DNA of 64,000 nucleotides from an uncultured Clostridium sp. (GTDB taxonomy: Bacteria; Bacillota; Clostridia; TANB77; CAG-508), in the NCBI GenBank assembly GCA_930987745.1, contig CAKNKX010000002.1, positions 16,535 to 80,534 of the forward strand, read 5' to 3'. Within the stretch, counting starts at the first letter, position 1. Each line of letters begins with the position of its first letter. The position numbers were made by a program, and so were the translations under genes. Shown piece after piece: positions 46,140-46,365 of this stretch. The notes beneath the pieces were generated by a model. That model did not search any database. It saw only the letters and a program-made list of their open reading frames with translations, and was not told the origin of the DNA.

Positions 46140-46264
46140 AAGGGCAAATGGTATAACTAAAACATAAGTTAGAAATAAAAGACTAAGAAAAAATAAGTAT
46201 AAATCAAAAGAAAAGTAAGGAGAAAAGCAATGAAAAACAAAGTGGCTGTAAGCCTTGTGGGAGT

Positions 46265-46286
46265 ACACACACACACACACACACAC
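46265..46286. repeat. (AC)11 dinucleotide microsatellite
   Basis: Perfect acacacacacacacacacacac. It lies inside a 24-codon ORF (46230-46304) encoding MKNKVAVSLVGV-HTHTHTH-FMFTK with an AAGGAGA RBS. Confidence 0.95.
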
Positions 46287-46365
46287 TTTATGTTTACTAA
46301 ATAATAAAAGGCTTGTAAGAAAAGCTAAAAACCAAGAAAAATTAAATAAAATAAAAATATATAAA

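Follow-up and report, generated by a model that had tools for sequence, protein, structure and literature searches.

The window analysed here is a stretch of 64,000 nucleotides from a contig of an uncultured Clostridium sp., with a GC content of 26%. On its forward strand it carries a gene for a 513-aa protein, preceded by a compact leader module that contains a short open reading frame, a dinucleotide repeat and an intrinsic terminator. The features of the module and of the gene behind it are listed below, where n is the number of AC units in the repeat tract and positions with a plus sign are counted from the end of the tract.

46128-46157, forward strand: predicted module promoter, read from the sequence
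46217-46222, forward strand: ribosome-binding site (RBS) AAGGAG of the leader ORF, 7 nt before the ATG, its core invariant in all aligned copies
46230-46304, forward strand: leader ORF as read at n = 11, 24 codons plus stop, encoding MKNKVAVSLVGVHTHTHTHFMFTK
46265-46286, forward strand: (AC)11 hypervariable dinucleotide tract, an exact run read from the sequence
46287-46422, forward strand: stretch free of stops in one frame only (offset +1 after the tract), used at n = 6, 9, 12 or 15
46363-46412, forward strand: intrinsic terminator whose 20-bp hairpin contains one bulge and precedes U7
46451-46457, forward strand: RBS AAGGAGG of the structural gene, 39 nt beyond the U-tract in the window
46465-48006, forward strand: structural gene, 513 aa, starting 53 nt beyond the U-tract
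48015-48045 (approximate), forward strand: probable terminator closing the unit (AAAACACCT...AGGTGTTTT), found by eye in the sequence

The predicted promoter is composed of a -35 element TTGACA (46128-46133), an 18-nt spacer ending in TG (46149-46150) and a -10 element TATAAC (46152-46157). The -35 element overlaps the 3' end (the stop) of the upstream Metallophos gene. The -10 element lacks the usual final T, and a consensus scanner remained silent on this promoter because the final base is C. From the ATG of the leader ORF the tract is read as alternating His (CAC) and Thr (ACA) codons, giving HTHTHTH in the window, and at n = 11 the ORF stops 59 nt upstream of the terminator hairpin. The original prediction of an (AC)11 microsatellite within a 24-codon mini-ORF with a good RBS was borne out to the nucleotide, for the tract as well as for the ORF. 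The same prediction had placed a strong terminator at 46366-46420; the strong terminator is real (folding energy -22 kcal/mol, z = -5.85 versus shuffles), and its coordinates had to be corrected to 46363-46412. A simple terminator scanner missed this hairpin because of the bulge. No Rfam 15 family was found in 46100-46500 at gathering or E-value thresholds; the best score, 25.6 bits with E = 1.1, belonged to the Bacteroid-trp leader, whose gathering score is 49. At n = 11 the long frame that spans the terminator can also be entered from a TTG at 46255 (ORF 46255-46422, 55 aa), for which no RBS is recognizable. This start is probably unused; if used, it could give leaky read-through.

The (AC)11 tract is the only non-AT dinucleotide run of at least five units in the 64 kb, where the second-longest AC/GT run has three units. 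The expected number of such runs per window is about 7e-11 (analytic expectation, first-order Markov model). The tract begins 108 nt downstream of the predicted -10 element, inside an ORF, and a promoter-spacer SSR switch of the kind exemplified by the (TA)n repeat of H. influenzae hif was rejected on this ground.

The 513-aa protein, a member of a large paralogous family, begins with a basic segment and continues with a TM helix and a long helix, behind which lies what is probably a beta-helix of the GLUG/IgA1-protease type. Searches of Pfam and NCBIfam gave no significant family (Pfam E <= 0.01). More than 2200 homologues were found, several of which carry PF07581 (GLUG). An AlphaFold model built from 31 sequences (pLDDT 87.8, pTM 0.84) shows the TM helix, the long helix and the beta-helix, and the closest solved folds are 3n6z, a putative IgA1 protease of B. 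ovatus (E = 2.6e-8), and 6xja, the IgA1 protease of S. pneumoniae (E = 7e-5). The gene had earlier been described as encoding a pilin-like GLUG protein. The GLUG part of this label is backed only indirectly, by some homologues that carry PF07581; the window protein itself gave no Pfam match. "Pilin-like" finds no support: there was no Pfam or NCBIfam match and no match to a prepilin N-terminal cleavage/methylation site. The label went back to the N-terminal basic-hydrophobic segment alone, RG-ITLIALITTIIVLLILAG, which is without the pilin Glu5. A type IV pilin is likewise not indicated, as the signature G-F-T-L-x-E is absent and RG-ITLIA has no Glu at +5. On the evidence of the model, the product is probably a membrane-anchored, surface-type beta-helix protein, a typical target of phase variation.

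Several neighbouring genes were recorded. A ZIP-family transporter gene at 48111-48615 seems to be truncated and is broken up into two overlapping ORFs (53 and 121 aa) that lie in different frames. Other assemblies show it broken in the same way, with ORFs of 53 and 89 aa called in L001 and L004; no SSR was found at the junction, and the gene is probably a pseudogene. Two further downstream genes (48790-50945), encoding 555 and 161 aa, accompany the structural gene in L004 and L005; neither matched a Pfam or NCBIfam family significantly. Upstream, at 42399-44375, lies a gene for an AAA_27 (SbcC-like) protein of 658 aa with a long low-complexity centre rich in Lys, Asn, Glu and Ile, which is encoded by imperfect A-rich tandem repeats with periods of 9-75, especially at 43075-43800.

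Proteins encoded on either side of the module recur in many metagenome assemblies. Exact-protein look-ups, a metagenome pattern scan and look-ups of five homologues of the structural protein recovered 54 module copies from such assemblies, and 47 of these are distinct. Three of these homologues (P0063, P0099 and P0145) led to module-bearing loci and the two more distant ones (P0052 and P0104) did not. The copies occupy at least 11 chromosomal contexts, among them positions after Metallophos, after RNase J, after D-Tyr deacylase, beside tRNA genes and within tandem arrays of four paralogues, and each copy sits 5' of a paralogue from one and the same protein family. The genes of the more distant homologues (43-56% identity, GC 29%; L070 and L075-L078) have no AC tract, no other leader SSR and no comparable leader, and the module is therefore regarded as lineage-specific. 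Exact-pattern scans with the left flank in genome and viral contig collections matched only unrelated high-GC sequences, which places the element outside the GTDB representative set.

In an alignment of 17 leaders the promoter, the leader RBS, the ATG and the structural-gene RBS are conserved, and the 3' arm of the terminator and the U-tract are invariant. The promoter described above is conserved in 15 of the 17, which come from unrelated upstream contexts; the other two, from one paralogue context, have TTGCTT-17-TGaTATAAT in the same place, and the occurrence of a different promoter at the identical position supports promoter function there. The terminator is present in all intact copies, and the distance from ATG to tract is 35 nt in every copy whose ATG could be located.

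Some copies are interrupted. Contigs L018, L027, L029, L033, L035, L055, L056 and L068 stop in the tract itself or no more than about 100 nt away from it, as is expected from a multicopy module, from length heterogeneity, or from both. IS elements with DDE_Tnp_1 transposases lie in or just after the leader module of the window locus at L051:1340-2806 and L064:1262-2566, where they separate the leader from the structural gene or replace that gene. At L061:2804-3205 and L050:3634-4037 a deletion fuses the 3' portion of the structural gene to the leader, at a point about 45 nt past the tract; the leader ORF of L061, with n = 9, reads on without a change of frame into the C-terminal portion of the protein, and 133 aa were called.

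Tract length ranges from 4 to 15 units over the 47 distinct copies. At the locus orthologous to that of the window, represented in about 25 assemblies, n is 4, 6, 7, 8, 9, 10, 11 or 14. The near-identical strain pairs compared (99.5-100% identity) have 2-nt gaps at the tracts only: L054 and L059 differ by no mismatch and one 2-nt gap over 1630 aligned nt, L060 and L066 by four mismatches and one 2-nt gap over 3065 nt, and L071 and L073 by 62 mismatches and two gaps, both at AC tracts, over 13.7 kb. These differences are polymorphism between strains, read from metagenome assemblies. The comparison of strains that had been suggested with the original prediction, for which an invariant length was the contrary outcome, found lengths that vary among strains. 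The indel pattern has the look of a slipped-strand hotspot, and the proposal that the tract is a slipped-strand device is supported by the variable n at a single locus and by strain-pair indels confined to tracts.

The gain or loss of one AC unit alters the frame of the leader and the position of its stop, as had been predicted, and the three frames differ in how far they run. In the offset-0 frame (n = 8, 11 or 14) there are three to six stops in the 140 nt after the tract, the first ending at +18 to +42. The offset-2 frame (n = 7, 10 or 13) has four to seven stops in the same interval, the first ending at +11 or +14. The hairpin begins at +77, so that these short frames stop at least 35 nt ahead of it. 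The offset-1 frame (n = 6, 9, 12 or 15) has no stop ahead of the hairpin. Its first stop starts at one of three positions, +95 (loop or end of the 5' arm), +104 (where a TAG lies within the 3' arm) and +134 (10 nt beyond the U-tract), or, in some copies, even later. In the window this open frame ends at TAA 46420-46422, 10 nt beyond the U-tract, and the remaining two frames have five stops each ahead of the hairpin. The pattern of a single open frame, used at n = 0 mod 3, was found in all 17 intact distinct leaders and in extra loci. Leader indel variants were seen at L072:5847 and L072:3613. A 9-nt in-frame duplication keeps the frame pattern, and after a 43-nt deletion behind the tract one frame is still open, with a change in the repeat-number class that gives it. 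All three frame classes occur, in 10, 18 and 19 of the 47 distinct copies, and 10 copies are currently in the long frame.

The first 88 nt of 14 intact leaders contain 32 substitutions, which are spread 10/12/10 over the codon positions (8 synonymous, 23 non-synonymous). The probability that one frame is open to +103 while both others are closed within 42 nt is 0.023 in dinucleotide-preserving shuffles, and that of no substitution making a stop in the open frame, as observed, is about 0.06 under neutrality, statistics that are modest (P about 0.02-0.06) and come from module copies that are related and hence non-independent. Read from these substitutions, what is kept in the leader is apparently the openness of the frame and not the peptide, which appears to evolve neutrally. 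Translation of the long frame, which is rich in A and in lysine codons, may be slow.

This bears on the view that the leader is a free-standing, phase-variable gene for a small protein, in which the basic long-frame peptide of 52-62 aa is functional, the hairpin merely ends the small gene and the structural gene is transcribed independently. The module does own a promoter, an RBS, an ORF and a terminator, and gene callers annotate products of 60-62 aa in strains with n = 6 or 9. Against this view are the apparently neutral evolution of the peptide, with its even spread of substitutions over codon positions, a C-terminus that varies among copies with the position of the stop, and the constant association of the module with a paralogue of one gene family. 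It is further opposed by the spacer between the terminator and the structural-gene RBS, which is about 18-45 nt long in most copies. The sole promoter-like match in this spacer is a weak TTTAAA-18-TAAAAT at 46418-46447; transcripts initiated from it would begin within the RBS, and some copies have lost it by deletion. Most copies thus seem to have no room for a separate promoter, and because the spacer seems too short for one, the structural gene is predicted to be transcribed through the terminator. A free-standing small-protein gene is accordingly considered improbable.

A similar low standing is given to the possibility that the tract acts at the RNA level without translation, as a CA-rich unstructured spacer or by recruiting an RNase or RNA-binding protein, in such a way that stability or termination would change gradually with tract length and not with a period of three. 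This would resemble the repeat in the 5'-UTR of hmw1A (PMC12721329). The tract is transcribed in the 5' leader, and 5'-UTR SSRs can work post-transcriptionally. However, the leader without the 3' arm of the terminator folds no better than shuffles (z -0.30), a search for RNA structure pairing with the tract found no complementary GU-rich partner, and a purely RNA-level action leaves the fixed register of RBS and ATG and the pattern of one open frame unexplained. No upstream partner was found for the 5' arm of the hairpin either. The absence of an antiterminator structure fits direct occlusion of the hairpin by the ribosome.

The module could also be taken as a duplicated intergenic cassette with a neutral, hypermutable microsatellite, in which the terminator only insulates paralogues. 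The roughly comparable frequency of the frame classes and the only moderate statistics for frame conservation agree with this, but every one of the diverged contexts, 11 or more in number, has kept the tract, and its distance from the conserved ATG, which has an RBS, is 35 nt throughout. Moreover, an unconditional terminator together with a missing promoter would leave the structural genes without expression, and other species with homologous genes have no module at all, from which it follows that the module was gained and kept as a unit. Neutrality of the tract is thus judged quite improbable.

The reading preferred here, with a probability of about 0.7, is a stochastic ON/OFF phase switch in which a slippery repeat is coupled to transcription attenuation, a mechanism deduced from the anatomy of the module and from sequence comparison. 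The promoter at 46128-46157 would drive one transcript comprising the leader ORF, the terminator and the surface-protein gene. Slippage during replication would add or remove AC units of 2 nt each, and the leader ORF would thereby move among its three frames. With n = 1 or 2 mod 3 the ribosome would stop 11-42 nt past the tract, at least 35 nt before the hairpin; the terminator would then fold and transcription would end (OFF). With n = 0 mod 3 translation would reach the hairpin loop, the 3' arm or a point beyond the U-tract, and the lead ribosome would block formation of the hairpin, allowing RNA polymerase to read through into the gene (ON). The copy in the window (n = 11) is predicted to be OFF, because its leader ends 59 nt before the hairpin. 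Slippage within a population, translation of the leader and relief of termination by translation through the hairpin are each deduced parts of this scheme. The original prediction of a leader peptide, terminator and gene that form an attenuator toggled by repeat length gains support in that exactly one frame, at n = 0 mod 3, reaches the terminator. In some Firmicutes, such as B. subtilis, RNA polymerase outruns the ribosomes, which would weaken the coupling between ribosome and terminator; the S. gallolyticus case shows that such coupling can work.

That case was the one matching system returned by a full-text literature search for a switch based on leader-peptide length. In the pil1 and pil3 loci of S. 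gallolyticus, a leader ORF that contains GCAGA repeats lies ahead of a terminator with a folding energy of -18.7 or -28.2 kcal/mol (Danne et al. 2014, PMC3894217). A leader stop at least 28 nt upstream of the pil1 hairpin gives low expression and one within or after it gives high expression; the switch depends on translation, and deletion of the terminator locks it ON (PMC3894217). The AC module shares with pil1 and pil3 the order of promoter, RBS and short leader ORF with an SSR, intrinsic terminator and gene for a surface structure. It also shares a repeat unit that is not a multiple of 3, a repeat number that differs between isolates, and a Firmicute host. Set against the pil1/pil3 stop rule, its short frames end at +11 to +42, its hairpin begins at +77, and its long frames end at +95 to +106 or at +136 or beyond. 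As in pil1/pil3, a short leader is predicted to mean OFF and a long leader ON through occlusion by the ribosome.

The two systems are non-homologous and differ in several respects. The repeats are (AC)4-15 here and (GCAGA)13-23 there, and the host is an uncultured Clostridia MAG here and a Streptococcus there. The AC module would regulate single genes for TM-anchored, GLUG-type beta-helix proteins, whereas the pil loci are sortase pilus operons. One of three frames is long in the AC module, whereas in pil1 both out-of-frame classes give long peptides. The AC module is present at no fewer than 11 loci, including tandem arrays. By its structure it appears to belong to the class of attenuators with an SSR in a leader peptide, which is a mechanistic class and not a sequence family. 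Phase variation by leader length and terminator read-through would, in the literature searched, otherwise be confined to one genus.

Other systems share single elements of this design. The trp, his and thr attenuators of E. coli likewise have a translated leader ORF 5' of an intrinsic terminator, and there too the position of the ribosome decides; they sense tRNA charging via alternative 2:3 and 3:4 hairpins. An attenuator of this kind that senses His and Thr, with ribosomes that stall at the CAC and ACA codons for want of charged tRNA, in the manner of the his and thr leaders, would make use of the alternating His and Thr codons of the tract. It is nevertheless regarded as highly unlikely: no alternative antiterminator hairpin was found, the number of the regulatory codons is unstable, and the regulated gene encodes a surface beta-helix protein and not a biosynthetic enzyme, where classical amino-acid attenuators control biosynthetic or aminoacylation operons. 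The input to the AC module would be a heritable change in DNA length and not a metabolite. In resistance genes of Firmicutes of the ermK, vmlR and lmo0919 type, translation of a leader ORF controls a downstream terminator. These are triggered by antibiotic-stalled ribosomes and refolding of the RNA, with no dependence on frame or repeat. The AC module would have leader translation and a terminator in common with them, and differs from them in depending on frame and repeat.

In the opa genes of Neisseria the (CTCTT)n repeat lies within the coding region of the structural gene and frameshifts the protein. The likeness to opa is in the many paralogous surface-protein genes, each with an independent slippery repeat, and in combinatorial expression. 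An intragenic SSR frameshift of the opa or lic type was, however, rejected for the AC tract, which ends 179 nt before the ATG of the structural gene and lies in a separate upstream ORF with the terminator between; it is predicted to act on termination. Multigene SSR phase variation of surface proteins of the Neisseria opa type is cited as a class by Danne et al. (PMC3894217). In the adhesin gene hmw1A of H. influenzae the 5'-UTR repeat (ATCTTTC)n folds into a long hairpin that RNase III cleaves, and the level of expression follows the number of repeats (PMC12721329). The AC module resembles it in having a transcribed SSR in the 5' leader and, as predicted, control after the initiation of transcription, and differs from it in the lack of a repeat hairpin and in its architecture of ORF and terminator.

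The same structural gene was found behind different upstream contexts, in the window versus L005 and in L082 versus L083. In L005:1-3100, compared with window positions 45597-46465, the 513-aa gene is preceded by a 514-aa paralogue, tRNA genes and Mob_Pre, and not by Metallophos. The gene for P0145 (at 8001-9251, L082 versus L083) follows Dtd in L082 and RNase J in L083, and in L079 a different paralogue, P0063, follows RNase J. These context swaps suggest that cassettes have been exchanged, or that recombination has taken place, within the conserved leader and N-terminal region. A wider scheme of antigenic variation in two layers, in an uncultured gut member of the Clostridia with a small genome (about 1.75 Mb), can be drawn up from this, although as a whole it is rated as rather unlikely. 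One layer may consist of the leader attenuators, at least 11 in number and each slipping independently, which would turn single paralogues ON or OFF. In the other, beta-helix cassettes may be moved between expression sites, with the conserved leader and N-terminal coding region serving as recombination handles. The basic long-frame peptide might perhaps act in trans to coordinate the loci.

If the AC module works as a phase switch based on leader length, it is a second, non-homologous example, and the design would appear to be a recurrent solution rather than a curiosity. It stands apart by its dinucleotide repeat, its uncultured Clostridia lineage and its spread over a whole family of surface proteins. 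The module also provides a signature that can be searched for in metagenomes, namely a short upstream ORF that contains an SSR and is followed by a terminator into which exactly one of the frames stays open. Annotation of MAGs from a single consensus will mis-call such leaders as hypothetical genes of 20-60 aa. As at least 11 paralogues each have their own copy of the module, cells could display different combinations of proteins, and heterogeneous surface coats are predicted for this uncultured member of the microbiota.
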